A DNA stretch of 19,828 nucleotides from a virus (taxonomy: Duplodnaviria > Heunggongvirae > Uroviricota > Caudoviricetes). The stretch lies in the IMG/VR virus record IMGVR_UViG_2874920711_000008; one strand, written 5' to 3'. How positions within the stretch are numbered: position 1 is the first letter of the stretch; every line of letters begins with the position of its first letter. The position numbers were made by a program, and so were the translations under genes. The notes under the pieces were generated by a model that did no database searches, was not told the origin of the DNA, and was given only the letters and a program-made list of their open reading frames with translations. Below are positions 814 through 19,182 of this stretch, piece after piece.

Positions 814-834
814 CTATATTGATGGACACGAACG

Positions 835-1509
835 ATGAATTCCCAGACAACAAAAGATATTCCCTGCTTCCGTTCTTATTTGCCTGATGCCCTGCGTTTA
901 AGATTTGAAGATAAACTGACCATCCGGGCCATCGCTCAGCGTCTGGGTCTCAGTCATTCCACAATACATACGCTTTTTCAGCGATTTCTTGCATCCGGTA
1001 TCGCATGGCCATTGCCCGATTCAGTTTCATTCGCTCAACTTGACGCCATCCTTTATGCCAACAGAAAGAAGGAATTAACAGAGCCTCAAATCAGAGAAGG
1101 CTCATGGCGAAAAGAACGGCGAACCAGCTATAGCCGTGAATTTAAGGTCCGTCTGGCTAAGCAGGCGTTACAGCCTGGGGCTGTTGTTGCCCGGATCGCC
1201 AGAGAACACGATATCAATGATAACCTGCTGTTTAAATGGAAAAGCCAGTACGAGGACGGCTTACTGAGCGATGATGACATACAGGAATGCATGCCTGTCC
1301 CGGTGGCACTGACTGATACGCCGGAGCCGACCAGACCAGTTACAAATCCCTTCTGGCGTAACAAGCATGATGAGCGCCCTGAGGGGGCTCCCGGAAACGT
1401 CCCACGGTGCGAGCTGCATCTTAAATCAGGTGTGGTAAAACTGTTTGACCCTCTCACTCCGGAACTGTTACGGGCGCTAATCCGCGAAATGAAAGGGGGT
1501 ATCCGATGA
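835..1509 (+). CDS. tnpA: IS66-family accessory protein TnpA (orfA); true start may lie downstream of 835
   Basis: The C-terminal ~130 aa (RRTSYSREFKVRLAKQALQPGAVVARIAREHDINDNLLFKWKSQ...) look like IS66 orfA; stop overlaps the tnpB start (ATGA at 1506-1509). The N-terminal ~90 aa is an extra predicted HTH-like segment. No clear SD before 835. Confidence 0.65.
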   Translation: MNSQTTKDIPCFRSYLPDALRLRFEDKLTIRAIAQRLGLSHSTIHTLFQRFLASGIAWPLPDSVSFAQLDAILYANRKKELTEPQIREGSWRKERRTSYSREFKVRLAKQALQPGAVVARIAREHDINDNLLFKWKSQYEDGLLSDDDIQECMPVPVALTDTPEPTRPVTNPFWRNKHDERPEGAPGNVPRCELHLKSGVVKLFDPLTPELLRALIREMKGGIR

Positions 1510-1852
1510 TAACGCTGCCGACCGGTACCAGAATCTGGATCATCGCTGGCATCACAGATATGCGTTGTGGCTTCAATGGCCTGGCTTCGAAGGTGCAGAA
1601 CACGCTGAAAGATGACCCGTTCTCCGGGCATATCTTCGTCTTCCGGGGCCGCAGTGGCAAAATGGTGAAAATACTGTGGGCCGATCGTGACGGGTTATGC
1701 CTGTTCGCCAAACGCCTGGAACGGGGCCGCTTCGTCTGGCCGGTGACCCGGAAGGGAAAGTGCACCTGACGCCAGCTCAGTTATCCATGCTACTGGAGGG
1801 GATCGCGTGGCAACATCCCAAACGGACAGAACGGCCTGGCATCCGGATATAA
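1506..1852 (+). pseudogene. tnpB: IS66 TnpB, reading frame broken near 1750-1760
   Basis: MITLPTGTRIWIIAGITDMRCGFNGLASKVQ...ILWADRDGLCLFAKRLERGRFVWP matches the IS66 TnpB pattern. The ORF stops at 1769, but the next frame continues VHLTPAQLSMLLEGIAWQHPKRTERPGIRI to a stop at 1850-1852. The break sits in CCCGGAAGGG. Confidence 0.8.
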
Positions 1853-1871
1853 CCCGTGATAAAACAAGGGA

Positions 1872-3427
1872 ATGAACAATGAACTCCCCGATGATATTGA
1901 GCTGCTTAAAGCCATGTTGCGTAAGCAACAGAGTCGGCTTCGACAGTATGCCTGTCAGGTCGCGGGCTATGAGCAGGAAATTGAACGGCTGAAAGCGCAA
2001 CTCGACAGGTTGCGTCGTATGTTGTTCGGCCAGAGTTCAGAGAAAAAGCGTCATAAGCTTGAAAATCAGATCCGACAGGCAGAAAAACGACTGTCGGAAC
2101 TGGAAAACCGGCTGAACACAGCCAGAAATCTTCTGGAAGATGCATCGTCAGTCACAGATTCACCTGACACCAGTCCCCGTCAGAAAACCCGATCGCCAGT
2201 AAGCCTGAATCCCCGGGAGACACATCGCCTTCTGCCTGCTGAAACCAGTTGCCCGGCCTGTGGAGGTGTTCTGAAAGAAATGGGGGAAACAATCTCAGAG
2301 CAACTGGATATCATTAATACCGCCTTTAAAGTTATCGAAACCATACGTCCCAAACTGGCCTGTAGCCGGTGTGATGTCATCGTTCAGGCACCACTTCCCC
2401 CTAAACCGATCGAACGCGGTTATGCCAGTGCAGGGTTACTTGCACGGATCCTGGTCAGCAAATATATGGAACATATCCCTTTATATCGCCAGTCAGAAAT
2501 ATACGCGCGACAGGGCGTGGAGCTGAGCCGTAATACCATGGTGCGCTGGGTATCAGAAATGGCAGACAAACTCCGTCCTCTGTATATAGCGCTGAATGAC
2601 TATGTTCTGGAGGCAGGAAAGGTGCACGCAGATGACACTCCGGTGAAAGTACTGGCCCGGGGAACGGAAAGACGAAAACGGGTCGTCTGTGGGTATACGT
2701 CAGGGATGATCGTAATGCGGGTTCATCCCTGCCGGCAGCCGTCTGGTTCGCGTATTCGGCAGATCGCAAAGGAGAACATCCGCAGCTCCACCTGGCAAAG
2801 TATCAGGGCGTACTGCAGGCTGATGCCTATGCAGGTTATAACGTACTGTACGAAACGGGCCGGGTGAAGGAAGCCGGGTGCCTGGCCCACGCCCGCCGAA
2901 AAATCCATGACGAGGATGTGCGCCGTCCGACAGAAATGACTCAGGAAGCGCTCAGACGGATAGCAGAGTTATACGACATAGAAGCGGAGATACGTGGCAG
3001 TCCGGCAGAGGAACGGCTTGCAGTCAGAAAAGCCAGAAGCGTCCAGTTGATGCAGTCGTTGTACGACTGGATACAGTTGCAGAGGAAAACGCTGTCGAAA
3101 CATGCGGAGATGGCGAAGGCGTTCGACTATATCCTGAATCACTGGAATGCGCTGAACGAGTTCTGTCGTGACGGCTGGGTGGAAATAGACAACAACATCG
3201 GTGAAAACGCGTTACGATCGGTGGCGGTTGGAAGAAAAAATTATCTCTTTTTCGGCTCAGACAAGGGAGGAGAAAGTGCGGCGATCATCTACAGTCTGCT
3301 GGTCACCTGCAAACAGAACGAAGTGGAGCCGGAGGACTGGTTGCGCGAAGTGATCGAGAAGCTCAATGACTGGCCGTCGAACCAAGTGCATGAACTGCTG
3401 CCCTGGAACTTCTCGTCTGTAAAATAA
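1872..3427 (+). pseudogene. tnpC: IS66-family transposase TnpC, one frame break near 2655-2660
   Basis: The N-terminal ORF (1872-2867) is recognisable up to ...[11 protein letters not shown]; the C-terminal part continues in another frame as [62 protein letters not shown]... and joins ORF 2864-3427. The break is in a GCCCGGGG run. Combined length is ~518 aa. Confidence 0.85.
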
Positions 3428-3448
3428 TCCTTACGCTACGTACTTCTC

Positions 3449-3459
3449 GGGGCGCTTAC
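3449..3459. repeat. IS66 right terminal inverted repeat (GGGGCGCTTAC)
   Basis: Exact reverse complement of 753-763. Confidence 0.8.
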
Positions 3460-3460
3460 T

Positions 3461-3766
3461 GAAAAAGCAGAAACCAAAGGCGCGAAAGCCGCAAAGAACA
3501 GCGCTGCACAGGAAAACCCGGCACCGCTGGCAGACGTTATTGTGGCTGACGGTCAGGCGAATGAACCACGTCCGGCTGAAGACCCGGTTGCTGTACAGGG
3601 TGACGCCCCTGTCCGGCTGAACGTCAGGGCCGTGTCTGAAAACGGGTTCTGGCGCTGTGGCCGTTTCTGGTCACATATCGGTGAGGATGTGGCGGTGAGC
3701 GCTGCGGTTGCCACCCGCCTGATGGCAGAACCGAATCTGATTGTCCGGGAAGCGGAGAAAGGCTGA
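3461..3766 (+). pseudogene. 3' fragment of a phage structural gene (likely the gene upstream of Mu gp36), cut by IS66
   Basis: An open frame runs from the IS boundary (...EKAETKGAKAAKNSAAQENPAPLADVIVADGQANEPRPAEDPVAVQGDAPVRLNVRAVSENGFWRCGRFW...) to a stop at 3764-3766 that overlaps the next start. It has no credible native start; the tracked ORF begins at a GTG at 3542. Confidence 0.4.
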
Positions 3767-4203
3767 TGGGATACATCACGCAGGAAGACCTGTTACGCGC
3801 GGACGGCAATCTTGTCTGGAACATGGCGATTAACCGGGAAACCAACGGGCTGGATGAAGACAAAATCCGTCAGGCCATCAGTGATGCGGAAGCGGAAATT
3901 GATTCGTTTCTGTCCCGCCGCTACCAGCTGCCGCTGGGGGTGACGGAAATCCCGCGCCCGCTGCAACGCGTGGCGGTATCGCTGGCGTTTTACTGGTTAT
4001 CAGAGCGTGACAATCAAATCACGGAGCTGATCCAGAAACGCTACGACGACGCCATTAAAACCCTGCGTGAAATGGCGAACGGCACCCGTGACCTGGGCCT
4101 GCCGACGTATGCCACCCCGGCAGAAACCGACAACGGGAAAATTATTGTGGTGGGTGCCAATGCCCGGCTGTTCACCCGTAACAACCTGAAAGGGGTGCTG
4201 TGA
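3766..4203 (+). CDS. Mu gp36-like phage protein (DUF1320 family)
   Basis: 145-aa ORF, ATG overlapping the upstream stop (TGATG), just upstream of the tail genes. Family assignment is from memory. Confidence 0.55.
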   Translation: MGYITQEDLLRADGNLVWNMAINRETNGLDEDKIRQAISDAEAEIDSFLSRRYQLPLGVTEIPRPLQRVAVSLAFYWLSERDNQITELIQKRYDDAIKTLREMANGTRDLGLPTYATPAETDNGKIIVVGANARLFTRNNLKGVL

Positions 4204-4745
4204 TGGGGATTTCTGTACAGGTCAGCGGTGACCAGCGTCTGGAGGATATCCGCCGCGCCGTTGAAAAGCTGGCAGAGGGTTCATTGCAGTCAGAGCTGCT
4301 GGAAAGCATCGGTGCGGTGGTGGAATCACAGACCCGCCGCCGCATCATCGATGAGAAAACCAGTCCGGGTGGCGAACGCTGGCCGGACTGGTCTGACGGG
4401 TACAAAAAGACCCGCCACGGCAACCAGAGTCTGCTGCGCGGTGAAGGCCATCTGCTGGAGAGTATCCAGTACATCGTGGAAAACCGCGTGGTGCGTATCG
4501 GTTCACCGCTGGATTATGCCCGCATCATGAATGACGGCTTTTCCGGCAGCGTGCCGGTCAGCGCCCACAAACGGCTTATCTCGCAGTGTTTCGGGCGGGC
4601 GCTGAAATATCCGGTCTGGCAGACCGTCGGCGCACATCACCGCATGATGAACATTCCGCAACGTGAATTTCTGGGGCTGTCTTCTGCCAGCCAGCAGGAG
4701 CTGCAACAGGTTATCAGTCATTTCTGGAAGGAGGTTCTGCCATGA
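4203..4745 (+). CDS. Phage virion morphogenesis / tail completion protein (Mu G / P2 gpS-like family)
   Basis: ~180 aa with ...RRRIIDEKTSPGGERWPDWSDGYKKTRHGNQSLLRGEGHLLESIQY...REFLGLSSASQQEL, typical of this family. ATG at 4203 overlaps the upstream stop; stop overlaps the next start (ATGA at 4742-4745). Confidence 0.6.
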   Translation: MGISVQVSGDQRLEDIRRAVEKLAEGSLQSELLESIGAVVESQTRRRIIDEKTSPGGERWPDWSDGYKKTRHGNQSLLRGEGHLLESIQYIVENRVVRIGSPLDYARIMNDGFSGSVPVSAHKRLISQCFGRALKYPVWQTVGAHHRMMNIPQREFLGLSSASQQELQQVISHFWKEVLP

Positions 4746-5353
4746 CAGAACAACGCCCTGAACTGCGCACACCGGGGAGCACCGTTGCGGCCGCAGAGCA
4801 CATTGTGGCCTGGCTGCAGACGGCCCTTCAGGGGGACACCCCTGACCGGGCTGACGTGGTGGAGCGTCACATCGGCCAGTTCAACAGCCCGGATGAAGTG
4901 AAACGCTATCTGTCCGGTCGCACCGGCTGTATCCGTGTCGCGGCCCTGCGTGTCCGGGATATCAACCCGCGCGGCGGGCTGTCCGGTCTGGTCACCTGGG
5001 TGGCTTACATCATGGCGACGGATTCGTGGGGGTATTCCCGCGACGTGCGCTGTGAAGTGCTGGCCGGAAAGGTGATCAAACGCCTGCTGTCGTCGGATGC
5101 CACAGCGGGCATGGGGGCTGAACGCATGGCTGCTGATGTGCGGGCAGACAACATTTACTCCGTCAGCCTCGACGGGCTGGGTGTCACCATGTGGGCGGTG
5201 ACGTGGGAGCAGGAATTCCGGCTGGATGAAGAGATTGATCTCGCCGCGCTCCCGGATTTCCTGCGCCTCGGGGCGACACTGCGCAGCGGCGAACACACTG
5301 AAATTAACGACGTGATCCATGTACGGGGTGACGATGGAACAGAAACTGATTAA
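4742..5353 (+). CDS. Mu gp37-like phage protein (DUF1834 family)
   Basis: 203-aa ORF in the conserved position between the morphogenesis gene and the sheath gene; translationally coupled upstream. Confidence 0.5.
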   Translation: MTEQRPELRTPGSTVAAAEHIVAWLQTALQGDTPDRADVVERHIGQFNSPDEVKRYLSGRTGCIRVAALRVRDINPRGGLSGLVTWVAYIMATDSWGYSRDVRCEVLAGKVIKRLLSSDATAGMGAERMAADVRADNIYSVSLDGLGVTMWAVTWEQEFRLDEEIDLAALPDFLRLGATLRSGEHTEINDVIHVRGDDGTETD

Positions 5354-5518
5354 GCCAGCGCGGGAAAACGTCCGTGTCCGTAAACCGGATGGCGCACATT
5401 TATCCCGGAAGGGGAACGTCTCAACGTCTGCGCTTACTGGCTGCGCCGTGAAGCCGAGGGAGATGTGGAAATAACCACACTTCCGAAAAATAACAACAAA
5501 ACCAGAGGGAAAAAATAA
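5334..5518 (+). pseudogene. Small (~60 aa) phage protein upstream of the sheath gene, frame break near 5405-5415
   Basis: ATG at 5334 gives MEQKLIKPARENVRVRKPDGAHLS..., then the next frame reads EGERLNVCAYWLRREAEGDVEITTLPKNNNKTRGKK with a stop overlapping the sheath ATG (TAATG at 5516-5520). The break is in CCCGGAAGGGG. Confidence 0.3.
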
Positions 5519-6992
5519 TGTCGCTGGGTTCCATTCCTGATGATATCCGCGTCCCGCTTGTCTGGATCGATATCGACAATTCACAGGCGCTGGAGGGTGC
5601 ATCCGCGCAAAGCCGAAAAATTCTGGTCATGGGCCATGCGGTATCGTCCGGCAGCGCAGACGCCCTGTCACTGACCCGTATCACCAGTGACAGCCAGGCA
5701 GACCAGCTTTATGGCAAAGGGTCGATGCTGGCTGAAATGCTCAAAATGCTGCGTCGTGCCAACACGTACACGGAAACCTGGGCGATGCCGGTTGCCGCTC
5801 CTGAAGGCGCTGCCGCAAAAGCCACGCTGACCGTGCTGGGTACAGCGACCGAAGCCGGAACGGTGGCACTGCTGATTAACGGTGTGTCCGTTCAGGTGAG
5901 CGTGAGCGCCGGGGATACGAAGGAAAACATTGCAAAAGCCATTGCTGATGCGGTGACGAAAAAGCCTGCCACGCAGGTGGCCGCTGCGGTGAAGGATGAT
6001 GCCACGGATACCGTGGAGCTGACCGTGAACTGGCACGGCGTCACCGGCAACGGTGCCGACGTTCGCCTGAACTACCACACCGGTGAAGCCTTCCCGGCAG
6101 GTGTGAAGGTGACCGCAACCGCGTTTACCGGCGGCACCGGGACACCGGAAATGGCAGACGCCGTTGCGGCCATCGGCCCGGAGTGGTTTACCGATATCAT
6201 CGCCCCGTTCACCGACACGAAAAGCCTGAACACCCTGCGTGATGAACTGCTGAACCGCTGGGGCCGCTCAAAATGATGGAAGCGCAGCTGTGGACGGCGT
6301 TTTGTGGCACGCACGGGGAAACCGGCACGTTTGGTGAAACCCGCAATGACTGGCTGATTAGCTGCATCGGCACCAACCTGTCGCCGCATCCGGCGTGGAT
6401 GTGGGCCGCGTCATACGGCGCAACGGCAGCGTATCACCTTGCCATTGACCCGGCGCGTCCGCTTCAGACGCTGGTCCTGACCGGCATTCTGCCGCCTGCG
6501 CGTAATGTTCGCTGGGATATGCCGGAACGTAACCTGCTGCTGCATGACGGCATTGCCACGCACATGGTGGACGCCGGGGATAACGTCTGCATCGAGCGTG
6601 AAATCACCATGTACCGGGTTAACCAGTACGGTGATGCGGATGTGTCGTATCTTGATGTGCAGTCACCCGCCACGCTGGGCCGTATCCGTTACATCATTAA
6701 AAACCGTTTCTCGAACCGTTATCCGCGCCACAAGCTGGCGGATGATGACGTGCTGGACTCGCTGGATGCGGGGCAGCCGGTGATGACGCCGAAGCTGTGC
6801 ACTGCAGAGCTGCTGGATATCTGCCAGACCGAACTTCTCCCGGCGGGCCTTGTGGAAAACTTCAGCGATTACAGGGACACGCTTCAGGTGACACGCGACA
6901 GCAGCGATAAAAACCGCCTGAACTTTATCTGCCACCCGAATCTGGTGAACCAGTTGCGTGTGCTGGCAGGCCTGATTCAGTTCAAGCTTTAA
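5518..6992 (+). pseudogene. L: Contractile tail sheath protein (Mu L-like), split into two ORFs near 6270
   Basis: ORFs 5518-6276 (252 aa) and 6273-6992 (239 aa) are adjacent, same strand, together ~491 aa, followed directly by the tube gene; they join through a one-base frame change. Confidence 0.8.
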
Positions 6993-7001
6993 GGGGGCCA
7001 C

Positions 7002-7358
7002 ATGGCAAAAATTCTTGGCATGGCGACCATTCGCGTGAATGGCCGCGAAATTAAAACCGAGGGGAAATCCACGCTGAATCCGGGCGGCTTCAGCCGCACC
7101 CAGCATATGGGCGGCGGCAAGGTCTGGGGTATCTCCAGCAAGATGGCCTCGCCGTCCATCAAGGTAACCATTGCGGCGGCAGCGGATATGGACGTGATTG
7201 AAATCAGCAACTGGGAAGATGTCACGGTGATGTTCTACGGCGACAACGGCCTGAACTACATGATGACGGGTTCCGCCACGGATAACCCGGCAGAGCTGGA
7301 CGAGGATTCCGGCACCATCAGTGCCAACTTTATCGGTGAAAAATGCGTGAAGGTGTGA
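7002..7358 (+). CDS. M: Tail tube protein (Mu M-like)
   Basis: 118-aa ORF immediately after the sheath gene (MAKILGMATIRVNGREIKTEGKSTLNPGGFSRT...); size and position are canonical for a myovirus tube. Confidence 0.75.
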   Translation: MAKILGMATIRVNGREIKTEGKSTLNPGGFSRTQHMGGGKVWGISSKMASPSIKVTIAAAADMDVIEISNWEDVTVMFYGDNGLNYMMTGSATDNPAELDEDSGTISANFIGEKCVKV

Positions 7359-7359
7359 C

Positions 7360-7755
7360 ATGGCCGCAATGGAATTTGAACTGAAACACGGGCTTCTGAC
7401 CGGCAAAGGCACGGCAGATGAAACCCTGCATAAAACCGTGAAACTGCGCGAACTGACCGCCAGTGATGTGATTGATGCGCAACTGGCCGCAGAACGCGTC
7501 GTCATGGGCGGGAACGGAAAGGCGGTGGCCTACTGTTCTGAGGTGCTGATGGGACTGGAGATGATGCGCCGTCAGGTTGCGTCAATCGGTAATATCCCCG
7601 GCCCGCTGGACATGAAACAGCTGCGAATGCTCCACCCGGCAGACCTTGAGCTTATCAGCACGAAAGCGGCTGTGCTGGATGACATGCTTGAGGAGGTGGC
7701 AACGCGGGGGCGAACTGATGCCGCTGGCGTCGGCACTGATGAACCTGCTGGTTAA
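7360..7755 (+). CDS. Tail assembly chaperone (Mu gp41-like)
   Basis: 131-aa acidic ORF between the tube and tape-measure genes, the conserved chaperone position. Confidence 0.6.
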   Translation: MAAMEFELKHGLLTGKGTADETLHKTVKLRELTASDVIDAQLAAERVVMGGNGKAVAYCSEVLMGLEMMRRQVASIGNIPGPLDMKQLRMLHPADLELISTKAAVLDDMLEEVATRGRTDAAGVGTDEPAG

Positions 7756-7855
7756 CCTGTCTTCGCGATTCAGCATTCAGTACCTGGAACAGCTGCCCCT
7801 GCAGCAGTTGTTCCGCCTGATAAAGCAACTGGAGAAACAGCATGGCAACAGGTAA
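7646..7855 (+). CDS. Alternative-frame extension of the tail assembly chaperone (candidate frameshift product, G/GT-like)
   Basis: An ORF in the +1 frame overlaps the chaperone 3' end, encodes a helical-looking peptide (...LMPLASALMNLLVNLSSRFSIQYLEQLPLQQLFRLIKQLEKQHGNR) and ends just inside the tape-measure start (7842). Confidence 0.4.
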   Translation: MSLSARKRLCWMTCLRRWQRGGELMPLASALMNLLVNLSSRFSIQYLEQLPLQQLFRLIKQLEKQHGNR

Positions 7856-9682
7856 CCGTCTCAGCACGGAAATCATGATCAACCTTGCCGGGAACCTGAC
7901 CGCCAAAGCCCGGCAGTACGGTGCAAACATGTCGCAGTTCGCCCGGAACAACCAGAAGGCCATGCGCCTGGTCAAAGCCACAACGGAGGCTGCCGGGCGC
8001 AGTCTGGATGCGCTTGGCAACCGCTACACGGCGATGATTGCCGGGTTCGGTGGTGGTATGACCCTTAAAGGCCTGACAGATTTTGATGCGCAAATCCGCC
8101 GTGCGGGTACAAATGCAAAACTGACCGATGAGCAGGTATCCCGTTTAAGAAAAAACATCCGGGAAACCGCCAGAATGTCAGACATTCGCCTCAGTGCCCA
8201 GGTCTTACTGGAAGGCCAGGATGCACTGTATGGCCTGACCGGTAAGCCGGAATTTGTTGAAAAAAACATCCGCAATCAGGGCTGGCCACGCAGGCATTCG
8301 GGACTGCGCCACAGGATGCCGCGGCACTGATGGCACAGATGTCCGAAAAACAGATTGAAGCGCCTCAGGAGGTTGAAGGCATGTTCGACCGCTTCTACCA
8401 CCAGTTTTCCATTGGTTCGGTTGGTGTGGATCAACTGGCGCGTGTATCAGCAAAACTGTTTTCGATTTATACCGGTGGTGGCAAAGAGGCGATAGCCCAG
8501 TTGGGGCACTTGAACAGATGCTGGCAAAAACAACCGGCTCTGCGGATGAAGCGGTGACCGCGCTGAACAGTATCTGGAGTGAAGTCACCCGAAAAGACAA
8601 TATCAAGTTTCTGAAAAGAAACGGGGTTGATGTGCTTGATCCTGTCACAGGAAAACCCCGTCTGCCTTATGACGTAATCAGAGACGTTGTCAGGCGGGCA
8701 AAATTTAATGAGCAGAACTTGCAGGATGTTTTCGGGGATACTTCCATGCGTGGATTAAGGGCACTGCTCAGTGAAGACGCCCTTCAGCTAACAGAAAAAA
8801 TGATTTACGCCCCGGTTGAATCCGGTGCCATGAGAAAAGCTGCGGAGAAAAACGCCCGGAGTTTTCAGTCTGCGATGCAGTCCCTGAAGAATGAATATGA
8901 GGTTTTTGCTGAAAAAAATCTGGCAAAACCCGTTCAGGACCTGGCGGATGCCATCAACAGCGTGGACCAGAACTGGTTGCAGGTCGGTAAATATATGGCA
9001 ATTGCGCTGGGTGGCATTATCGCCGTACGTAAGACGTACAAGCTCGGTAAAACCATCCACGACATCATGAATCCCAAAGGGAAAGGCAAAGGGATACCCG
9101 GCGGTATTACGGATGTTTTCGGCTCCGGCGTGATGCCGGTGTATGTGGTCAATATGGGCAGTGGCGGGATGAACGGCAATGTCGGTGGTCTGCCGGATGC
9201 GCCGGATTCATCACGCAATCCCGTAACCCACGCAATCCACGAGGTCCGGGTAACCGCGGAGGTAATGCGGGCAAAGGCGCTGGCATCATCGCCGGTGCCC
9301 TGGAATTTTACGATTTTCTGACCACGCAATACGCCCTGCCGGGTGAGATTGACAGTCTTACAAAATCCGTGGCCGGTGATGCCAGCGCCAGCCCGTGGGA
9401 GCGCGAGTTCGCGCAACAAAGCCAGGATAACCAGAAAGCGCTCGAGTCCGTCTGGCGTAAGGTAACGGACTGGTTTAATTCGCTGGGTGACAAGAACATT
9501 GCCGACCCGCGACCGTGGGCAGGTATGCAACCCACACAGAATTATCCTTTCCTTCCGCAACAATTGCAGGGGAAATCCGTGTGGTGGTGGAAGGTGATGC
9601 CCGCGTGAAAAGCGTCAGAGTGGATCAACCCGGCGTCAGACTCAGTGCGCAGGCTGGCGTCACCAGCGTGGAGCAGGGTTAA
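7842..9682 (+). pseudogene. Tail tape measure protein (Mu gp42-like), split into at least 4 ORFs
   Basis: Co-linear ORFs 7842-8330, 8330-8557, 8518-9321 and 9369-9608 in frames 0, 2, 1, 0, plus a final stretch ...VVVEGDARVKSVRVDQPGVRLSAQAGVTSVEQG ending at 9680-9682 (TAATG overlap with the next gene). Total ~613 aa. The adjacent frame reads cleanly across the first break (...GLATQAFGTAPQDAAALMAQMSEKQ...). Confidence 0.75.
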
Positions 9683-10953: not shown

Positions 10954-12018
10954 TGGAATCCGTGATTCTTACCGTTGACGGCAAACTGTGGGAAGGCTGG
11001 ACGGAAATGTCCGTCAGCCGTTCCCTGAAGGCGATTGCCGGTGAGTTTGAACTCAGTGTGACAACCCGCTGGTCAGCGGCGGCACCGCGCGTGATTCGTG
11101 AGGGGCAACCCTGCACGGTCAGGCTGGGCGCAGATACCGTGCTGACGGGGTATATCGATGATTTTATTCCCGGCTATGAGGCTGAAAACGTGGAGATTCG
11201 CGTCATGGGGCGCGATAAAACCGGCGACCTGGTGGACTGCTCTGTGGTGCATTCGTCCGGGAAATGGAAAGGCGTGCGGCTTGAACAGGTGGCGGCTGAT
11301 GTCTGCCGCCCGTTCGGGATAACCGTCATCACGGAAACCCCGACCGGGGAGGCATTTGCGTCTGTCGTTCTGGAACAGGGTGAAACGGGCTTTGAACTGC
11401 TCGACCGGCTGGCAAAACAGCGCGGCGTTCTGCTGACGTCTGACGGCGCGGGTAACCTGATTATCACCCGCGCCTCTTCCGTTCGCGCGGGCGTGTCACT
11501 GGTGCTGGGAAAAATATCCTCGCCGCCCGTGGGCGCTTCAGCTGGCGGGAGCGTAACAGCCAGTACATCATCAAGGGCACCACCAGTGCCCGTGGCAAAC
11601 TGTGGGACAGCCAGCCTGCCCGATGGTGGGCGGTCGCCAGTACATCACCGAAGCCCCGGAAATTAACCGTTACCGCCCGCGCATTCTGGTCAATGAAGAC
11701 AGCCTGACCGTGGGCGGGCCAGCATTCGCGGGAATGGTACAAAGCCCGGATGCTGGGAGAGTCCCGCACGACGGAAATCACGGTGGCAGGCTGGCGCGAA
11801 CAGGGCGACAGCGGCCCGCTGTGGCAGACCAACCGCCTTGTCGATATCGACGACAGCATTCAGAACCTGAAAACCACCTGGCTGATATCCGGGGTGACAT
11901 GGACGGATGGCGCACAGGGAGGATGACGGTTCTGGCGCTGGTTCCGCCTGAATCACTGGACATGCCGGAAATGAAAGCGAAGACGAAAAAAACAAAGGCG
12001 GTGGCCACATGGGATTAA
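10953..12018 (+). pseudogene. P: Tail/baseplate protein (Mu P-like, gp44), several frame breaks between ~11500 and ~11930
   Basis: A 237-aa N-terminal ORF, then plausible protein sequence alternating between frames (ENILAARGRFSWRERNSQYIIKGTTSARGKLWDSQ; RQYITEAPEINRYRPRILVNEDSLTVGG; EWYKARMLGESRTTEITVAGWREQGDSGPLWQTNRLVDIDDSIQNLKTTWLISGVTWTDGAQGG; MTVLALVPPESLDMPEMKAKTKK). Stop at 12016-12018. Confidence 0.6.
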
Positions 12019-12544
12019 ACGCAATTGCCCGCCGCCTGCGACTGATGGTTGACCGCGCTGTTGTCCGCCTGGTGTCTGACGGTCTGGCACGGCAGAACCT
12101 GCAAATTCAGACGCTGGCAGATGCCACCGATGACGACGTGGAACGCTTCCAGAACTACGGGTTTACGTCCGTTCCGCCGGAAGGTTCTGAAGCCATTGTG
12201 ATGGCCGTTGGCGGACGGCGTGACGGGCTGGTTGCCATCGCGGTGGAAGACAAGCGATGTCGCCCGAAAGGACTGTCCCCGGCGATGTCAGGGTGTATCA
12301 CCGGGACGGCAAATCACACATCACCCTGAAGGAAAACGGCGTCATTGAAATCACAGGAGAACAATTAGACTTTTCAGGGAAAACGGTAAATCTCACTGCC
12401 GACGAACTGCTGAATATTATCGGTAAACAAATGAAATTCGTCGGTCCCTGTGAATTCACTGAAGATGTCAGAATCAAGGGTAAATCATTCAGCGAACACA
12501 TTCATAAGGACGGCGACAATGAGAATACATCACCGCCCGTATGA
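12009..12544 (+). pseudogene. Baseplate assembly/spike protein (Mu gp45-like), one frame break near 12250-12300
   Basis: ORFs 12009-12329 and 12257-12544 are co-linear and read as one protein (MGLNAIARRLRLMVDRAVVRLVSDG...PGDVRVYHRDGKSHITLKENGVIEITGEQLDFSGKTVNL...). Confidence 0.7.
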
Positions 12545-12991
12545 CGACAGAAATCCGCTGGAATAACATGCTCTCACGGGGTGACATCACCGTCACCCAT
12601 AACGGCCTCTCACGGGATGAGGGCTGGTCACTCAGGTTCTTATCTGCCTTTTCACCGATGCCCGCGCTGATGACGATGATGTCATTCCTGACGGCTCCGG
12701 CGACCCGCGCGGCTGGCCGGGCGACACGTACAGCGATTTTTCGTGGGTTCCCGCCTGTGGCTGCTTGAGCGTGAAAAGCTGACGGAAGATGTCCGCCTGC
12801 GCGTGGAAGATTACGCGCGGCTGTCCATGCAGCCGCTTCTGCGTGCCGGTTACGCCCGTAACGCCACCGTCACGGCCAGCATCATCATTCCTGACCGTAT
12901 TGCCTTTCTGGTGGTGTTAACCCGCCCGGACAAAACCACACTCAGAATCGAAATCACCCGTCGATGGGAGGCCACCATTAATGCCGTATGA
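12541..12991 (+). pseudogene. Baseplate protein (Mu gp46-like, GP46 family), two frame breaks
   Basis: N-terminus MTTEIRWNNMLSRGDITVTHNGLSRDEG, a middle piece in another frame (...DDDVIPDGSGDPRGWPGDTYSDFSW), and a C-terminus in the third frame (GSRLWLLEREKLTEDVRLRVEDYARLSMQPLLRAGYARNATV...). Confidence 0.65.
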
Positions 12992-13953
12992 AATCCCCAC
13001 GCTGGGCAAACTGATTGCCGACGGCGAAAAAGATATTGCGTATGAACTCGGCCTGCAAAAGCTGCCGCCTGTCAGTGTTGAGCAGGCGCTGAACGTGTCA
13101 TTCAGCAGTCAGGTCCGGGATTTATACGACCATCAGAGCTGGATTAAGGACCAGATAATCCCGTCCACCACGTCTGATGATGAAACCATTATCAAAACAG
13201 CAAAGTATGAAGGCGTTATCCGCAAGCAGGCCACCTTTGCCAGCGGGCGGGTGACCTTCACCAGTCAGTCCCCCTTCCGGCAGAAACCCGGATGCAGTCC
13301 GACACGAACCAGGTGTATCAGGTACTCACGTCCGGCGAGGTGCAGGACGGCGAGGTCACCGTCATCGTGCAGGCTGAAGAAGCCGGTGTGGAGGGCAATC
13401 TTGCTGCCGGTGCCGTACTCACCCTGCTGTCCCCGCTGCCCGGAACGGCCAGCACAGGCGCGGTGGCTGAAGGTGGCATCACCGGTGGCGCAGACACTGA
13501 ATCCATCGCAGCGCTGCTGGACCGTCTGCTGTATGTGCGCCGCAATCCACCGACAGGCGGCGCGTTGCATGACTACGTGATATGGGCGCGTGAAGTGCCG
13601 GGCGTCAGCCGCGCGTGGGCGTGGGATGCATGGCACGGCCCGGCACGGTCGGGCTGGCATGGCTTTATGATGACCGGGAAAACATCGTGCCAACCCGCGA
13701 AGACCTGAAGACAATGGAGCAGTATCTGTTCTGCCACAAACACCCGGCCACGGGCGTGATGGTGGGTAAACCGGGCGGCATTGAGGTCTGGCCGGTACAG
13801 GTCAGGCTGAAGAAAGTCAGCATATCCATCCGTCTGACACCGGACAGCCTGGCGAACAGGAGCGCCGTCCGGGCAAACCTGACCGCGTTACAGAAGACAC
13901 TGGCACCCGGTCAGACGCTGCCGGGCGGTTTACCTGTATTGATGGCGTCATGA
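12981..13953 (+). pseudogene. Baseplate J-like protein (Mu gp47-like), split into three ORFs
   Basis: ORFs 12981-13580, 13292-13708 and 13615-13953 are co-linear in frames 0, 2, 1; the real-looking parts (MPYEIPTLGKLIADGEKDIAYELGL...; ...EVQDGEVTVIVQAEEAGVEGNLAAGAVLTLLSPLPGTA...; ...LKTMEQYLFCHKHPATGVMVGKPGGIEVWPVQ...) follow one another. Confidence 0.7.
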
Positions 13954-14051
13954 CACCATTAATCAGCGAACGCACCCGTGAGCTGGAATGCCTGCTGAAG
14001 CATTACCGGCTGGCGGGCACGGAATATGAATATTATTACACCGGAGAATAA
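13950..14051 (+). CDS. Short ORF (33 aa, MTPLISERTRELECLLKHYRLAGTEYEYYYTGE) between the baseplate J gene and the fibre gene
   Basis: ATG overlaps the gp47 stop (ATGA); its own stop lies 3 bp before the fibre ATG. It sits where a Mu gp48-type gene would be but is far too short. Coding status is uncertain. Confidence 0.25.
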   Translation: MTPLISERTRELECLLKHYRLAGTEYEYYYTGE

Positions 14052-14162
14052 TTTATGTTTTATGTGGATAACCCGACGGGTGTGCCGGTAATGCCACCTG
14101 TCGCGGCTGAATTAAGCAAAACAACGCTTTATTTCACCGAAGGCGGGAACGGTATTCCGCCC

Positions 14163-14172
14163 ACGTATCCGG
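14163..14172. repeat. Left copy of the 10-bp direct repeat CGTATCCGGG (target-site duplication of the IS4-family element)
   Basis: Identical 10-mer lies immediately outside both CTGA...TCAG termini (14163-14172 and 15472-15481). Confidence 0.7.
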
Positions 14173-15471
14173 GCTGAGGGATCCCCACAAAATTACTGCT
14201 AATAAACCAGCACCATATTTCGGTAGGTTCTGGACAGATGGTTTAGAACTGTGCTCAGTACTGTTCGTCTTAAAATAAGTGGCGAGTGTCGAAGAACATT
14301 CTTCGCTAACGTCAGATATGAGATAACCCGCCGGGATTTAATGCTGTTAGCCTGATATTTCAGGTGTAACCCTTTATTTTCAGCGTGATAACCGAGTAAC
14401 CACATTACGATAGTGCTCAACGTTGCCAGCAGACTCAGAACCAGAATTCTTCCTGTTGAACGACTTTTGCTGGCCCGAAGACCAAATCCGAAGCGCCCGT
14501 TCTTTTCATCACGAAAGTTTTGCTCTATCTGCATTCGCCGACTGTATAACTTGATGATTTCTCGCGCTCTGAAGTCATTTGTACTGCTGAAGATCAACCA
14601 GGCTTCTTTTGCTGATTTGCTCTGTTCTTTGTCTGTTTTGTTTAAACCACTCTGACCTTTCGAACGTTTCTTTTTTCGCCCTTTTGCCGATTTCTTATAG
14701 GTGTAAAAATGCCCCCGGATGCTTTTTTTCCTTTCTTTAACCAGCCTTCCAGCCCCATATATTCCGGTGTTTTACATTCAGGGCTATCCGACACTTTTAA
14801 CCATCTTTCAGGCGCGTTATCGAGGCAATACTGAACGTTATTTCTGATCCGACCAATAAAATCCCAGCCCAGAGAAGTAATATGGTGAAACCATGCGCTC
14901 TGAAATCCAGCATCCGTGACAATAATAACCCTGGCATCGGGGGCAGGGATTGAGCAAGGGAATCAAGGAAATCATGTTGTATCAATGGATTATTTTGTTT
15001 TTCAGAAGGAACAACCTTACTCAATAACGGAATGGAACGCCCGTCACACAGAAGGCTGGCACGAAGAACATGATGCTCCTGGAGGGATAGCCACTCCAGT
15101 CTACGGCTATTACACATAAAGATAACTGCCGTGTCAGCATTGAAGTGATATTCCTGAAAATCATTGGAATATCGCGATGGAGCGCCTCATTACCCATGAG
15201 GCGATCAATACGTTTGCTCTTATTCTTAACTTGTGCATTACCCGGGAAAAAACGTCCGATACTGGTCAGCGTCAGAGATGCTCCGTTGATTAACGCCACT
15301 GTGGCATCCATCAGGGCATTTTGTCGGTACTGATGAAATGGTGCTAAGGCATCCCGGAAGAAATTCTGACATACTTTATGAACAGGCATAGCAGTGATCT
15401 CATTGAATTGTTGGCACAAATCAGTAGATCACATAATGCTATGTCTGTCTCGTTTTCTGGGGATTCCTCAG
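14173..15471 (-). mobile_element. IS4-family (IS10-like) insertion sequence, 1299 bp, inserted in the tail fibre gene
   Basis: Termini CTGAGGGATCCCC (14173-14185) and GGGGATTCCTCAG (15459-15471) are inverted repeats with one mismatch and resemble the IS10 outside end (CTGAGAGATCCCC). Flanked by the 10-bp direct repeat. Contains a minus-strand IS10-like transposase. Confidence 0.8.
14199..15389 (-). pseudogene. IS4-family (IS10-like) transposase, in at least 4 frame segments
   Basis: Minus-strand segments align in order to IS10 transposase: N-terminal (...TLTSIGRFFPGNAQVKNKSKRIDRLMGNEALH...VDWS), middle (...HVLRASLLCDGRSIPLL...VIIVTDAGFQSAWFHHITSLGWDFIGRIRNNVQY...) and C-terminal (...IFSSTNDFRAREIIKLYSRRMQIEQNFRDEKNGRFGFGLRASKSRS...). 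One break sits at a T7 run (14723-14729). Confidence 0.8.
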
Positions 15472-15481
15472 CGTATCCGGG
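15472..15481. repeat. Right copy of the 10-bp direct repeat CGTATCCGGG
   Basis: See 14163-14172. Confidence 0.7.
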
Positions 15482-16372
15482 GCCGGACTGGTTTAATATT
15501 ATTCAGTCTGAATTACTGGAAATACTCCGGCAGGCAAATATCAAACCGGATAAAAACACAACCGACCAGATTATGACAGCGCTGAAAAAACTGTTTATTA
15601 CGAACAGTGGTTCAGCCGGAGCTATTGCCGGATTAACCGGTCAGAATAATACATTCCCTTATTTTACCGGCAAAGACACAATGGCATTAACACCGCTCAG
15701 TGCGTTTGTGCGCAGTATTCTCGGGAAAAACAGCGCCAGTGAATTTATTAAAGCAATCGGCCTGTCACCAGACATCCTTTTATCAAAAGGACCGGTGACA
15801 GCATTAAGCAGTACAGCACAGGGCAATGCAGGACTTCAGATGTATGAAGTGTACAACAACGGCTATCCCACAGCTTATGGCAATGTTCTGCATCTGAAAG
15901 GCGCGGCAGCATCTGGCGAAGGCGAACTGCTGATTGGCTGGAGTGGCACGAGCGGTGCACATGCTCCGGTTTATATTCGCTCAAGGCGTGATACCACCGA
16001 TGCAGTCTGGTCTGAATGGGCGCAGGTGTTTACATCAAAAGACAGCTTCAACGCAGCATCCGCCACAAAACTACAGACCCCACGCAAAATTAACGGTACG
16101 GCATTTGATGGCACCAGAGATATCACCATCAGCAGCACCGATTCTGGTGCAGTACGTGATTTCAGATACACCAGCGAAGTGTTTCACAATCCCGGTGGTA
16201 ACGAAATTTCCTGGGTATTCCGCGCGCCTTCAGGGTGTATTTTGTCAGGTATTAACGTTCAGGAAACTGGCAAAAGCTCTGCGGATAACATCGGGGGTGT
16301 GTATTACAAACAAACTCAGATTTATATCAATGGCGGATGGCGCACGGTATCCGGCTAATTAAGGAGAAAATA

Positions 16373-16903
16373 ATGGAACTCAGAAACGTCACGCGTTATT
16401 ACCCGGAAGAAATGCCTTATGGTGAAAACATTCAGTATTTCCGCAGTGAAGACGGACAGGATTTTTATGAATCACTGGATAAATTCACGAAGAAATACAA
16501 ATTATGTATTCACCCGGAAACCGGCGTGATTTATTCAATGGCAGAAGACGTGTCTCGTCTTTATCCTGTTGGTTTTACCATTGTGGAAGTGGATGAGCTG
16601 CCGGAGGGTTTTGACATCGAAGCCAACTGGTATTACCGGGATGGCGAAGTACTGCCAGTTCCTGTTGATTATTCGAAACTGGCAGAAAAGCAACGTCAGC
16701 GCTTGCTGAATGAAGCAAAGGAAATCACTTCCGACTGGAAAACCAAGCTGGAGCTGGGCACCATCAGCGACGATGACAAAGTCCGTCTTACGCAGTGGAT
16801 GGAATATATCAAAGCGGTGAAGGTGCTGGATTTAAGCACTGCTACCGATGAAATCTCCTTTGATGCCATCAACTGGCCGGAGCGTCCCGATGCCGCAGCT
16901 TAA
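16373..16903 (+). CDS. Tail fibre assembly chaperone (Tfa; Mu U / P2 G-like)
   Basis: AAGGAG SD 7 bp upstream of the ATG at 16373; ~176 aa; directly downstream of the fibre gene; Tfa-like features (...PEGFDIEANWYYRDGEVLPVP..., C-terminal ...DEISFDAINWPERP). Confidence 0.75.
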   Translation: MELRNVTRYYPEEMPYGENIQYFRSEDGQDFYESLDKFTKKYKLCIHPETGVIYSMAEDVSRLYPVGFTIVEVDELPEGFDIEANWYYRDGEVLPVPVDYSKLAEKQRQRLLNEAKEITSDWKTKLELGTISDDDKVRLTQWMEYIKAVKVLDLSTATDEISFDAINWPERPDAAA

Positions 16904-18296
16904 AGGTGTGATTAAAACGCCCACGGGAGAACCGCTGGGCGGCGCAACCATTACACTGACCTCCCTGCACAACCGTGCAGGGATTCTGAAAGGCGTTTTC
17001 AGCCACGTCACCACACAGAGCGGGGAGTATGACTTCCCCGTTCTGCCGGGCGTGTACAGCGTTCGCCTGACACAGAGCGCACAACGCCTTTCAGAAATCG
17101 GTGTCATTCGCGTTTATGAAGATTCAGCGGACGGTTCGCTGAATGATTTTCTGGGCGCAACTGATATTGACCTGCGTCCGGAATCCCTGAAGAAATTCGA
17201 AGAGCTGGCGCAACAGGCGCAGCAGAGTGCCGGGGCCGCAGCCGGAAACGCACAGCAGACGGCGCAGGATGTGGCGGCAGCCGCAACGGCCCGTGATGAT
17301 GCACAACGTTTTGCGGAGAAAGCCCGACAGGATGCAACCGTCACAGCTGAGGACAGAAAGGCCACTGCGGAAGATGTGACAAGCACAGGAGCAAATGCAG
17401 CCGCAGCCGGACAGAGCGCACAGGATGCCGCAGGTTATGCCCGCGCAGCAGAACAGGCCAAAAATGACATTGATGCTGCGCTGACCGGCACTCTGAAAAT
17501 GGCTAACCATCTGTCAGAAATCGCAGCAGCAGGCGAAAAGGCACAACAGAAGTCCCGGGATAATCTGGGGCTGAAAAGTGCGGCCACGATGGAAGCACAG
17601 AGCGACATTTACGACCGGACAAAAGGCCGTCTGGCGATACCCGGCGCATTCGGCTTTGGGTGTGCTTTTCTGCCTGAAGATGTTATCCGTTTTGACACTA
17701 AGAGTGATTTCCTGGCCTGGGTAAGGAATGCGCTGCCAGGTGAGTATTCCGTTGCTGGCCCCTACGGCATCATCATACCCGACACACGGTTTGAAGGGGG
17801 GCTCAGCATCCGGTGGACTGATGCACGCCCTGAGACAACAGAACCGAGGTACAGAGCCAAATCCCTTACTTTTTACGGCATTAACGGCCCCATTTATCAC
17901 ACCCGCTACTGCTACTGGCCCATATCCAGACTGACTGGCTGGGTGAAAATAAATATAACCACAGAAGATATTATTTACAGAATCGTGGCGAGCTCTGTCC
18001 GCAACAGATGGGGAGACCCTGACATTGGCGGGCTGATTATTGCTGCGTACCAGGGAAAAGCTGACGGTGATAAAGACATCAGACTTGTCAGGGGGCGGTC
18101 ATACAGAGGCTCACGACTGGGACCGGTGGGGATTTCAGCGCCCTGTACTCCCACCGGAACGCATATAGTATACCCACAATATTTCATTACGGGATGTTCA
18201 GAGCATTCATTACCGGGGTCATATTGCGCCCTGTCCGGGGTGCCGGATACATATGTCTCTGGCGCAATGCTTGGGCTTTTTATTCGCACATCGTGA
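16890..18296 (+). CDS. Second tail fibre protein with a lambdoid Stf-type N-terminal domain
   Basis: Intact 469-aa ORF from the ATG at 16890 (GGAG SD upstream; overlaps the tfa 3' end). N-terminus MPQLKGVIKTPTGEPLGGATITLTSLHNRAGILKGVF...VYSVRLTQSAQ...IRVYEDSADGSLNDFLGA resembles prophage side-tail-fibre N-termini, followed by an Ala/Gln-rich stretch. Confidence 0.7.
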   Translation: MPQLKGVIKTPTGEPLGGATITLTSLHNRAGILKGVFSHVTTQSGEYDFPVLPGVYSVRLTQSAQRLSEIGVIRVYEDSADGSLNDFLGATDIDLRPESLKKFEELAQQAQQSAGAAAGNAQQTAQDVAAAATARDDAQRFAEKARQDATVTAEDRKATAEDVTSTGANAAAAGQSAQDAAGYARAAEQAKNDIDAALTGTLKMANHLSEIAAAGEKAQQKSRDNLGLKSAATMEAQSDIYDRTKGRLAIPGAFGFGCAFLPEDVIRFDTKSDFLAWVRNALPGEYSVAGPYGIIIPDTRFEGGLSIRWTDARPETTEPRYRAKSLTFYGINGPIYHTRYCYWPISRLTGWVKINITTEDIIYRIVASSVRNRWGDPDIGGLIIAAYQGKADGDKDIRLVRGRSYRGSRLGPVGISAPCTPTGTHIVYPQYFITGCSEHSLPGSYCALSGVPDTYVSGAMLGLFIRTS

Positions 18297-18306
18297 GGAA
18301 TGCACT

Positions 18307-18872
18307 GTGGAAATTAAAAAAATCATTAATCCCCGTTATACCGAAAGTGGCGCAGTAGACTGTGACGTTTTTTTGACGACAGGGACCAGGCAGTCCCCTA
18401 CACAGCCACCGCTGATGATGTCGCTCCGACGGGTCAGCAAATCTGGCAGGAACTGCAAAGCGGCAAATGGGGTGAGATAGCCCCATTCACTGTGACACCA
18501 GAAATGCTGGAAGCGGCCAGAGAGGCCAGACGTCAGGAAATTGAAGCATGGCGCACAGAACAGGAGGCGAAGCCGTTCACGTTTGAATGGAACGGTCGTA
18601 TCTGGGATGCTGGCCCCGACTCACTGGGCCGCCTGTCCCCGGTGGTCATGCTGGCAAAATCTGTCGCGGCACAAACAAATATGACGTGGAGTGATGCGGA
18701 TAATCAGCAGGTGCAGCTGACGACGCAGGAACTTGAGGAACTGGCCACAGCGATGATACAGGCCATTGTTGAGCGCAACGATGAGATTTATCGCTGTCAG
18801 CGGGAGATGAAAGAACAACTTTCTCTGTTGCCCACACTGGACGAGGTGAGAGCGTTCAGACCAGGCGATTAA
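18307..18872 (+). pseudogene. Tail fibre assembly protein with DUF4376-like C-terminus, frame break at a T7 run (18368-18374)
   Basis: GTG at 18307 after a GAGGA SD reads VEIKKIINPRYTESGAVDCDVF; after the T7 run the next frame continues FDDRDQAVPYTATADDVAPTGQQIWQELQSGKWGEIAPFTVTPEMLEAAREARRQEIEAWRTEQEAKPFTFEWNGRIWDAGPDS... to a stop at 18872. One extra T restores a single ~188-aa ORF. Confidence 0.6.
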
Positions 18873-18894
18873 ATAATCAGTTTGTATAGTTTAT

Positions 18895-18996
18895 GACGAT
18901 CGATAGAATCATATCGATCGTCGGTTTGCATCAAGTGTGATTAAATACCCCCAGCCCTCCGGGCAGCGATATCCTGTTATTACACTGGGGGAAATT
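18895..18996 (+). promoter_or_regulatory. Putative mom-operon regulatory region: GATC-containing palindrome (18904-18931) plus a C/G-rich segment upstream of com
   Basis: Perfect 11-bp inverted repeat GACGATCGATA/TATCGATCGTC around a 6-nt spacer holds two GATC sites (18907-18910, 18925-18928); then CCCCCAGCCCTCCGGGCAGCGATATCCTGTTATTACACTGGGGG up to the com SD. Mu mom control is known to use Dam-methylated GATC sites and C-protein binding; assignment here is by position and analogy. Confidence 0.4.
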
Positions 18997-19182
18997 ATGG
19001 ACTCTGTTCGTTGTAAAAATTGCAATAAATTGCTGTTTAAAGGAGGTTTTAAGCATATAGAAATCAAATGTCCTCGCTGTAAACGTTACATTGTCATATC
19101 GAGTGCCCGGGAGCATCCCACGGAGCTGTATTGTGGGAAAAGAGAAGAAATCACGCATTCTGACAAAACCCTGCGTTATTGA
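18997..19182 (+). CDS. com: Com, zinc-finger translational activator of mom
   Basis: 61-aa [64 protein letters not shown] with a CxxC...CxxC...C arrangement, recognisably Mu Com; GGGG SD upstream; 3' end overlaps the mom 5' end. Confidence 0.85.

Follow-up and report, generated by a model that had tools for sequence, protein, structure and literature searches.

Probable consensus artifacts in short G/C runs, and inherited lesions, in a Mu-like tail module from GenBank record CP026824.1

The 19,828 nucleotide (nt) stretch of DNA analyzed here (the window) carries the remnant of a Mu-like prophage in which nearly every long gene is broken into pieces, as are the transposition genes of two insertion sequence (IS) elements, ISSfl3 and ISSfl1. 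Do these breaks record genuine decay of the prophage, or are they errors in the consensus sequence? A preliminary description, made from the letters of the window, had named a series of genes as split and had favored consensus errors over decay. Each of those genes does lie in pieces in successive reading frames, both in the list of open reading frames and in the gene calls of the source record itself. Comparison of the sequence with that of close relatives indicates that the 24 one-base breaks located in runs of G or C are almost certainly consensus artifacts of one assembly, and that they overlie a Mu-like tail module that is truly degraded.

Deletions private to the source record

The window is part of GenBank record CP026824.1 (GCA_002949875.1) and matched the fetched locus base for base. 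A protein look-up found the broken 252 amino acid (aa) fragment of the tail sheath (5518-6276) recorded in one contig only, CP026824.1. Sister assemblies with the same arrangement were found by exact-protein look-up and consisted of AAMJ02000030, which is the draft of Shigella dysenteriae 1012 from The Institute for Genomic Research (TIGR; PMC2974192, PMC6397287), CP027027 and UYIS01000022, plus two short contigs (a DBFX record and the Logan assembly of run SRR29980942). The breaks in the window were placed by alignment to an intact Escherichia coli prophage, to canonical copies of the two IS elements, and then to the sister assemblies. Matches in the phage collection were mainly at the level of com and mom and were of no use for calling insertions and deletions (indels).

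UYIS01000022 and the source genome are colinear across relA-mazEFG-pyrG-eno-ygcG-ISSfl3 and on into the prophage, up to window position 15332, while CP027027 and strain 1012 are colinear with the source from window position 6908 to 8.4 kilobases (kb) past the window end. The source differed from UYIS01000022 by three substitutions and 26 one-base deletions in the source over 20.6 kb, from CP027027 by four substitutions and 27-28 one-base deletions over 21.4 kb, and from S. dysenteriae 1012 by 17 substitutions and 29 one-base deletions. Among themselves the relatives are consistent, a single indel separating CP027027 from strain 1012 in 21.4 kb. The deviation is thus confined to CP026824.1, and it is always a missing base and never an extra one.

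Across the window there were 26 one-base deletions and no insertions, and 24 of the deletions fell in G/C runs of at least 3 nt. Such runs make up 7.3% of the aligned bases, and a count of 26 to 0 is far above chance. At the 24 sites the runs of G or C are 3-6 nt long in the relatives. Against the intact E. coli prophage we found 19 gap events in 10.5 kb, all of them deletions in the window: 17 were single bases in homopolymers, one combined losses in two neighboring runs, and the remaining one was an in-frame deletion of 12 nt. The shortening of a T8 tract to T7 at 18368-18374 was found in addition. The alignments to intact homologues bore out the earlier statement that the single-base breaks all lie in homopolymers and are all deletions in the window. 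Strain 1012, CP027027 and UYIS01000022 have the longer run at every private site with the exception of 14753, where CP027027 also has C4.

A tally of the deletion signature was made over 33.5 kb of the source genome, with the relatives taken as truth. It gave 36 private deletions, no insertions and five substitutions, or approximately one deletion per kb, and 35 of the 36 deletions were in G/C runs of at least 3 nt. Every private deletion removed one base (24 of 24 in the window and 36 of 36 in the 33.5 kb). The fraction of G/C runs that was shortened rose from 2/588 (0.3%) for runs of 3 nt to about 18/125 (about 15%) for 4 nt, 11/31 (35%) for 5 nt and 3/4 (75%) for 6 nt. None of the A/T runs of 4-7 nt was shortened (0/344), and the only T run of 9 nt was (1/1).

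Core genes had been proposed as a check in the preliminary description, and pyrG provides one. This gene encodes the essential CTP synthase, lies 1.6-2.9 kb upstream of the window, and has two G4 to G3 losses, at window positions -2859 and -1602, or about 3334927 and 3336184 in the source record, as a result of which it is called as 83 + 449 aa in the source record compared with 545 aa in UYIS01000022 and in E. coli. Such losses in an essential gene point to error rather than decay. Downstream of the window, the type VI secretion system (T6SS) gene tssM is called in four pieces, compared with 1043 aa in CP027027. Ten more private one-base deletions were seen beyond the window (at about 20000-25500 in window coordinates), including a T9 to T8 change at about 26834, and a downstream IS4-type transposase is split by private deletions into 119 + 277 aa as opposed to 442-448 aa.

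When 24 bases were inserted at the private sites, the alignment to strain 1012 had zero gaps over 12.9 kb, and full-length products were restored for tnpB (115 aa), the sheath (491 aa), the tape measure (614 aa), N (424 aa), gp45 (178 aa), gp46 (150 aa) and the ISSfl1 transposase (407 aa). We considered the converse, namely that the references contain insertion errors, and rejected it because four independent assemblies and the E. coli prophages agree and encode intact proteins of the length expected for their families. Nor do the tracts resemble those that underlie phase variation or programmed frameshifting, which vary among close isolates and are usually at least 7 nt long: the G/C tracts are 3-6 nt and differ in CP026824.1 only, and the two A/T tracts described below, A5 and T7, are invariant across all members of the lineage.

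Lesions shared with related assemblies

Six lesions recur in the relatives, which none of the 24 G/C sites does: the ISSfl3 junction, a 44-nt deletion in tnpC, the A5 tract in P, a 573-nt deletion in gp47 and gp48, the ISSfl1 insertion, and the T7 tract in the DUF4376 gene. As these six are common to independent relatives, they are, on the strength of the alignments, inherited within the lineage and real.

ISSfl3 (753-3459, plus strand) lies between the chromosomal gene ygcG and the prophage, with flanks GTTTAAGC and TGAAAAAG and no target-site duplication. Because the duplication is lacking, we interpret the element as sitting at a rearrangement junction that truncates the prophage. On its right side the element meets the prophage 5 nt inside the gene that, in intact prophages, comes first after the major head gene (position 5996 of prophage locus L001), and this right-hand junction between ISSfl3 and the prophage was found in four other assemblies. 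To the left of the same junction CP027027 has the T6SS vgrG region and not ygcG. The two different flanks, together with the lack of a target duplication, suggest an IS-mediated inversion or translocation between the CP026824 and CP027027 genomes.

Within tnpC, comparison with the canonical ISSfl3 copy identified the junction of a 44-nt out-of-frame deletion between TCCCCGGGA direct repeats at 2198-2222 (plus strand). The deletion is common to UYIS01000022 and CP027027, which have no gap relative to the window here, and tnpC is called as 123 + 382 aa; two related loci (L018 and L014) retain the 44 nt. We asked if the deletion might be common among ISSfl3 copies and rejected this, as no E. coli RefSeq copy spanned the junction as a single piece and only UYIS01000022 and CP027027 had it. 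In UYIS01000022 only, the tnpA gene of ISSfl3 contains an 8-nt tandem duplication (CATACAGG; 6526-6533 of its locus, or window position ~1278) that splits it into 161 + 72 aa. This duplication is absent from the window, CP027027, L018 and L014.

The gene P, which encodes the baseplate hub, has a frameshift caused by the reduction of A6 to A5 at 11510-11514 (plus strand), common to all of the lineage relatives. A5 is present in six related loci, consisting of L009 (strain 1012), L010 and L017 (both CP027027), L021 (UYIS01000022), L014 and L018, and A6 is present in six intact prophages (L001, L002, L013, L016, L020 and L022). Gene calls give P a length of 251 aa in the relatives, as against 356 aa for the intact gene. 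A second lesion of the baseplate genes is the 573-nt deletion, whose junction, located by comparison with undeleted prophages, lies at 13919-13924 (plus strand) in a 6-nt microhomology, TGCCGG. Through it gp47 loses its final ~43 codons and gp48 its initial ~151. Strain 1012, CP027027 and UYIS01000022 share the deletion and are colinear with the window here, with gp47 called as 324 aa and without the Baseplate_J_C domain; the stretch is undeleted in L018, L001 and L022.

ISSfl1 (14174-15471, minus strand) lies in a tail fiber gene, where it is flanked by a 10-nt duplication, CGTATCCGGG, at 14164-14173 and 15472-15481, and the insertion is common to the relatives. The left copy of the target, which reads GGG where GGGG might be expected, was considered as a further under-called run and rejected, because no relative differs from the window here and the duplication is just 10 nt long. 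The last of the six is the T8 to T7 frameshift at 18368-18374 (plus strand) in the tail fiber-associated DUF4376 gene, which is common to the relatives. T7 is found in the window and in four other assemblies from independent projects (L009-L012), and T8 in L001 and L002, two intact prophages in which the gene encodes 208 aa. The 12-nt in-frame deletion in the tape measure gene (~8967) is likewise common to the relatives and is harmless.

These findings divide the claims of the preliminary description. Consensus error holds for 24 of the 26 one-base breaks but not for the A5 tract in P or the T7 tract in the DUF4376 gene. Breaks shared by related genomes had been named there as evidence against error; the relatives share none of the 24, but they share both of these tracts (11510-11514 and 18368-18374), the latter being one of the four sites presented as showcases. 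The statement that there were no larger deletions did not hold, given those of 44 nt (tnpC, ~2210), 573 nt and 12 nt, a tail fiber gene interrupted by an IS and a prophage cut by ISSfl3. The tail module, mom and both transposases had been thought probably intact. This is true of mom and com, and probably of the ISSfl1 transposase, but not of tnpC with its 44-nt deletion and not of the tail module, where the P frameshift, the gp47/gp48 deletion, the IS in the tail fiber gene and the frameshift in the DUF4376 chaperone are all real.

It is conceivable, though we regard it as very improbable, that transcriptional or ribosomal slippage occasionally overcomes the A5 and T7 frameshifts, which would yield some full-length protein. 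Decoding by slippage occurs in some Shigella type III secretion genes. The one observation in its favor here is that both tracts are homopolymers fixed across several lineages, and the gp47/gp48 deletion cripples the baseplate in any case.

Origin of the private deletions

We propose that the CP026824.1 consensus systematically lost one base from short G/C homopolymers, which would have created 24 false frameshifts in the 19.8-kb window. Beneath these errors would lie a degraded Mu-like tail module, as expected in the IS-rich genomes of Shigella, its real lesions being the truncation by ISSfl3 on the head-proximal side and the five others described above. We infer that the cause was an unpolished PacBio-type long-read consensus, because of the error signature and because the accession lies inside a block of Shigella genomes that the literature describes as sequenced with PacBio alone and as having many indels in homopolymers. 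In a previous report (ARAMIS; PMC8574707), the PacBio consensus errors of medium-high GC genomes were mostly single G/C deletions in homopolymers of 4-6 nt, and they truncated essential genes. The closed PacBio Shigella genomes published by Kim et al. 2018 were excluded by Yassine et al. 2022 (PMC8795385), who counted 9-584 allele differences between them and Illumina data for the same strains. CP026824 falls within a range of accessions from Shigella that were deposited together, CP026808-CP026840, and one of these, CP026832, has been named explicitly in the literature as a PacBio sequence belonging to the genomes of Kim et al. A long-read-only assembly without short-read polishing is suggested by this accession block along with PMC8795385 and PMC10132075.

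The published artifact (PMC8574707, PMC8795385) and the one seen here have in common that they consist of deletions only, lie in G/C runs of mostly 4-6 nt, and are absent from independent assemblies. An essential gene is truncated in both, pyrG in the present case and DNA gyrase in the published PacBio example. We found no substantive difference between the two, although the density here (~1 per kb) is at the high end. The IS-driven decay of Shigella prophages, on the other hand, matches the ISSfl3 truncation, the ISSfl1 insertion, the 44-nt and 573-nt microhomology deletions and the two fixed frameshifts, all common to the sister assemblies, strain 1012 included. Decay of this type accounts for only about six lesions and not for the 24 G/C-run breaks.

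Several alternatives were weighed against a consensus artifact. Pseudogenes and IS elements abound in Shigella genomes, natural indels also favor homopolymers, and this very locus has real lesions common to relatives, including the two homopolymer frameshifts, so that all of the frameshifts might be genuine products of replication slippage in a prophage remnant and its IS copies during the reductive evolution of Shigella. We consider this highly unlikely. Three independent assemblies, only 3-17 substitutions away from the source in about 21 kb, lack the 24 breaks, the ratio of indels to substitutions is about 7:1 or more with no insertions, pyrG has two such losses in spite of being essential, and the A/T runs were spared. 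In addition, an otherwise canonical-looking ISSfl1 would have acquired three frameshifts with only two substitutions. A variant of this explanation, a real hypermutator strain (mismatch-repair deficient, for example) that underwent a recent burst of G/C-run deletions, would draw on the fact that mismatch-repair defects raise homopolymer indel rates in a length-dependent manner. Mutators of this kind also raise transitions, produce both +1 and -1 events and affect A/T runs. The 36 deletions were accompanied by five substitutions and no insertions, with no change in the 344 A/T runs of 4-7 nt, and approximately one frameshift per kb when extrapolated, including two in pyrG, would inactivate a large share of the genes of a strain that was grown for sequencing; we give this variant almost no credence.

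Among artifacts, some other platform or pipeline (Nanopore, 454/Ion Torrent or faulty polishing) could be responsible in place of unpolished PacBio reads, as all of these have problems with homopolymers. Flow-based platforms produce over-calls as well as under-calls and have no preference for G/C. The deletions-only pattern in G/C runs of 3-6 nt, with the shorter A/T runs spared, is instead that of PMC8574707, and the accession is placed inside a Shigella block of which one record, CP026832, is cited as PacBio and of the Kim et al. set; another platform thus seems unlikely, although it is the least improbable of the alternatives. It might also be argued that the A/T-tract frameshifts in P and the DUF4376 gene are sequencing errors repeated in every assembly, since both are in homopolymers and several of the relatives are long-read assemblies. 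The same tract lengths were obtained in independent projects (the TIGR draft of S. dysenteriae 1012, the DBFX contig and Logan SRR29980942), no private errors were found in the A/T runs of 4-7 nt of CP026824.1, and P is consistently 251 aa in the gene calls of the relatives, which together make repeated error very doubtful.

Three points weigh against an unpolished PacBio-type consensus as the origin of all 24 breaks. The C4 tract at 14753-14756 is ambiguous: it is C4 in CP026824 and CP027027 and C5 in strain 1012, UYIS01000022 and the canonical ISSfl1 copy, and may either descend from a common ancestor as a real allele or reflect one systematic error that occurred twice. That PacBio was the platform, and that CP026824 belongs with the genomes of Kim et al., is deduced from the accession range and the error signature; a literature search found neither CP026824 nor GCA_002949875, and the supplement of PMC8795385 is without accessions, so the link to the PacBio batch is indirect. 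Finally, the genomes used for comparison, although very close, may come from other strains, so that the 24 sites are in the strict sense private to this record.

The type of artifact is already documented, and the underlying biology is that of an ordinary IS-degraded, defective Mu-like prophage remnant in Shigella, so the case matters only as a flag of data quality. If the density seen in the 33.5 kb holds genome-wide, CP026824.1 would contain roughly one false frameshift per kb, and gene calls, pseudogene counts, core genome multilocus sequence typing alleles and inferences of decay drawn from it would be unreliable unless the sequence was polished or the analysis was frameshift-aware. Comparison with sister assemblies is able to separate private from shared breaks, which in this window gave 24 probable artifacts as opposed to two real frameshifts and four real structural lesions.

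Genes interrupted by the private deletions

The private losses are on the plus strand with the exception of those in the ISSfl1 transposase gene. Three are in ISSfl3. The loss in tnpB is a G3 to G2 change at 1750-1751 (between CCCGG and AAGGG), where the canonical ISSfl3 copy, UYIS01000022 and CP027027 have GGG. Those in tnpC, C5 to C4 at 2175-2178 and C4 to C3 at 2656-2658, were identified from the canonical ISSfl3 copy and the relatives. The preliminary description had placed breaks near 1755 and ~2656, which is correct. Relative to the canonical copy, the ISSfl3 of the window has these three one-base losses and the 44-nt deletion.

In the prophage, the intact prophage and the relatives revealed a C4 to C3 loss in the DUF2635 gene (5404-5406), which was missing from the earlier list of split genes. 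The sheath gene has a G5 to G4 loss at 6260-6263 that divides it into 252 + 239 aa and that was recognized from the intact prophage, the relatives and the restoration. The tape measure gene has exactly four breaks, as had been described: G4 to G3 at 8279-8281, G5 to G4 at 8503-8506, C4 to C3 at 9220-9222 and G5 to G4 at 9569-9572. It is called as 162 + 75 + 267 aa in the source record. Three losses are in N, the DNA circularization protein gene (C5 to C4 at 9923-9926, and C4 to C3 at 9929-9931 and 10492-10494), and four are in P (C4 to C3 at 11619-11621, and G4 to G3 at 11716-11718, 11730-11732 and 11917-11919). The strain 1012 draft (L009, 2866-4052) has N called as 42 + 305 aa and P uncalled, despite having no indel relative to CP027027; a nonsense change, or an error in the draft, may be among the 15-17 substitutions of strain 1012. 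Further along, gp45 has a C5 to C4 loss (12277-12280), gp46 has two G4 to G3 losses (12621-12623 and 12745-12747), and gp47 has two losses, C6 to C5 at 13270-13274 and C4 to C3 at 13639-13641.

The three losses in the ISSfl1 transposase gene (minus strand) are C5 to C4 at 14753-14756, G6 to G5 at 14939-14943 and G3 to G2 at 15081-15082; along with two substitutions, they are the only differences between the window copy and the canonical one. A T7 tract at 14723-14729 had earlier been taken as a break in this gene, but T7 is also present in the canonical ISSfl1 and in all relatives. The element itself, which had been described as IS10-like, is annotated as IS4-like ISSfl1 in RefSeq copies, and the IS66 element is ISSfl3.

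Structure of the prophage remnant and its surroundings

The window begins in chromosomal sequence with ygcG (1-813, minus strand), a TPM-domain protein of 270 aa that was identified by its Pfam TPM_phosphatase match and by synteny with E. coli. Its 3' side adjoins ISSfl3, and it contains no private indels. The order mazF-mazG-pyrG-eno-ygcG is as in E. coli, with mazF-mazG-pyrG-eno outside the window, upstream. The 3' part of ygcG (window ~20-40, minus strand) lacks, in frame, 18 nt of a CCG-rich repeat that E. coli AB66 has; the deletion is also present in UYIS01000022 and is thus natural variation.

ISSfl3 is an IS66-type element comprising tnpA (835-1509), tnpB and tnpC, and is 99.6-99.8% identical to annotated ISSfl3 copies. 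ISSfl1 is an IS4-type element with 99.6% identity to ISSfl1. Both elements have terminal inverted repeats, the ends being GTAAGCGCCCC...GGGGCGCTTAC in ISSfl3 and CTGAGGGATCCCC...GGGGATTCCTCAG in ISSfl1.

The Mu-like remnant (3460-19828, plus strand) encodes virion-completion and tail functions followed by com and mom, and is 98% identical to the complete prophage of E. coli FDAARGOS_943. Its genes are, in order, gp36-like, S-like, DUF2635, sheath, tube, chaperone, tape measure, N, P, gp45, gp46, gp47, the tail fibers and their assembly proteins, com and mom. Pfam assignments of the gene calls confirm these names for the sheath, the tube, N (DNA_circ_N), P (GpP-like), Mu gp45, gp46, gp47 (Baseplate_J), DUF4376, Com and Mom, and both the gene order and the families found (Phage_Mu_Gp36, Gp41_Mu, DNA_circ_N, GpP-like, Phage_Mu_Gp45, GP46, Baseplate_J, Zn_ribbon_Com and Mom) are of the Mu type. 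The same order, from gp36-like through gp45-48 to the tail fibers, com and mom, is found in E. coli Mu-like prophages such as that of FDAARGOS_943 and in phages Mu, D108 and SfMu. In the intact relatives (L001, L013, L016, L020 and L022) the early, lysis, terminase, portal and head genes are contiguous with the tail genes, whereas the window has the distal half only, next to ISSfl3. The element is therefore incomplete, with ISSfl3 and chromosomal ygcG occupying the place where head genes would be expected.

The com (61 aa) and mom (231 aa) genes (18997-19828, plus strand) are intact, with no indel relative to the relatives, and have 87-88% DNA identity to phages Mu, D108 and SfMu. Beyond these two genes, megablast gave no DNA match to Mu itself; two short matches were the only others in the phage collection. 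The region of the tail fiber and assembly genes (15472-17284) is mosaic. Its segment 15737-16864 could not be aligned to the FDAARGOS_943 prophage, which is otherwise the closest, and the region as a whole is better matched by E. coli RM11911 (L005), with 95.8% identity over the entire stretch. Downstream of the window the prophage remnant adjoins a type VI secretion cluster.

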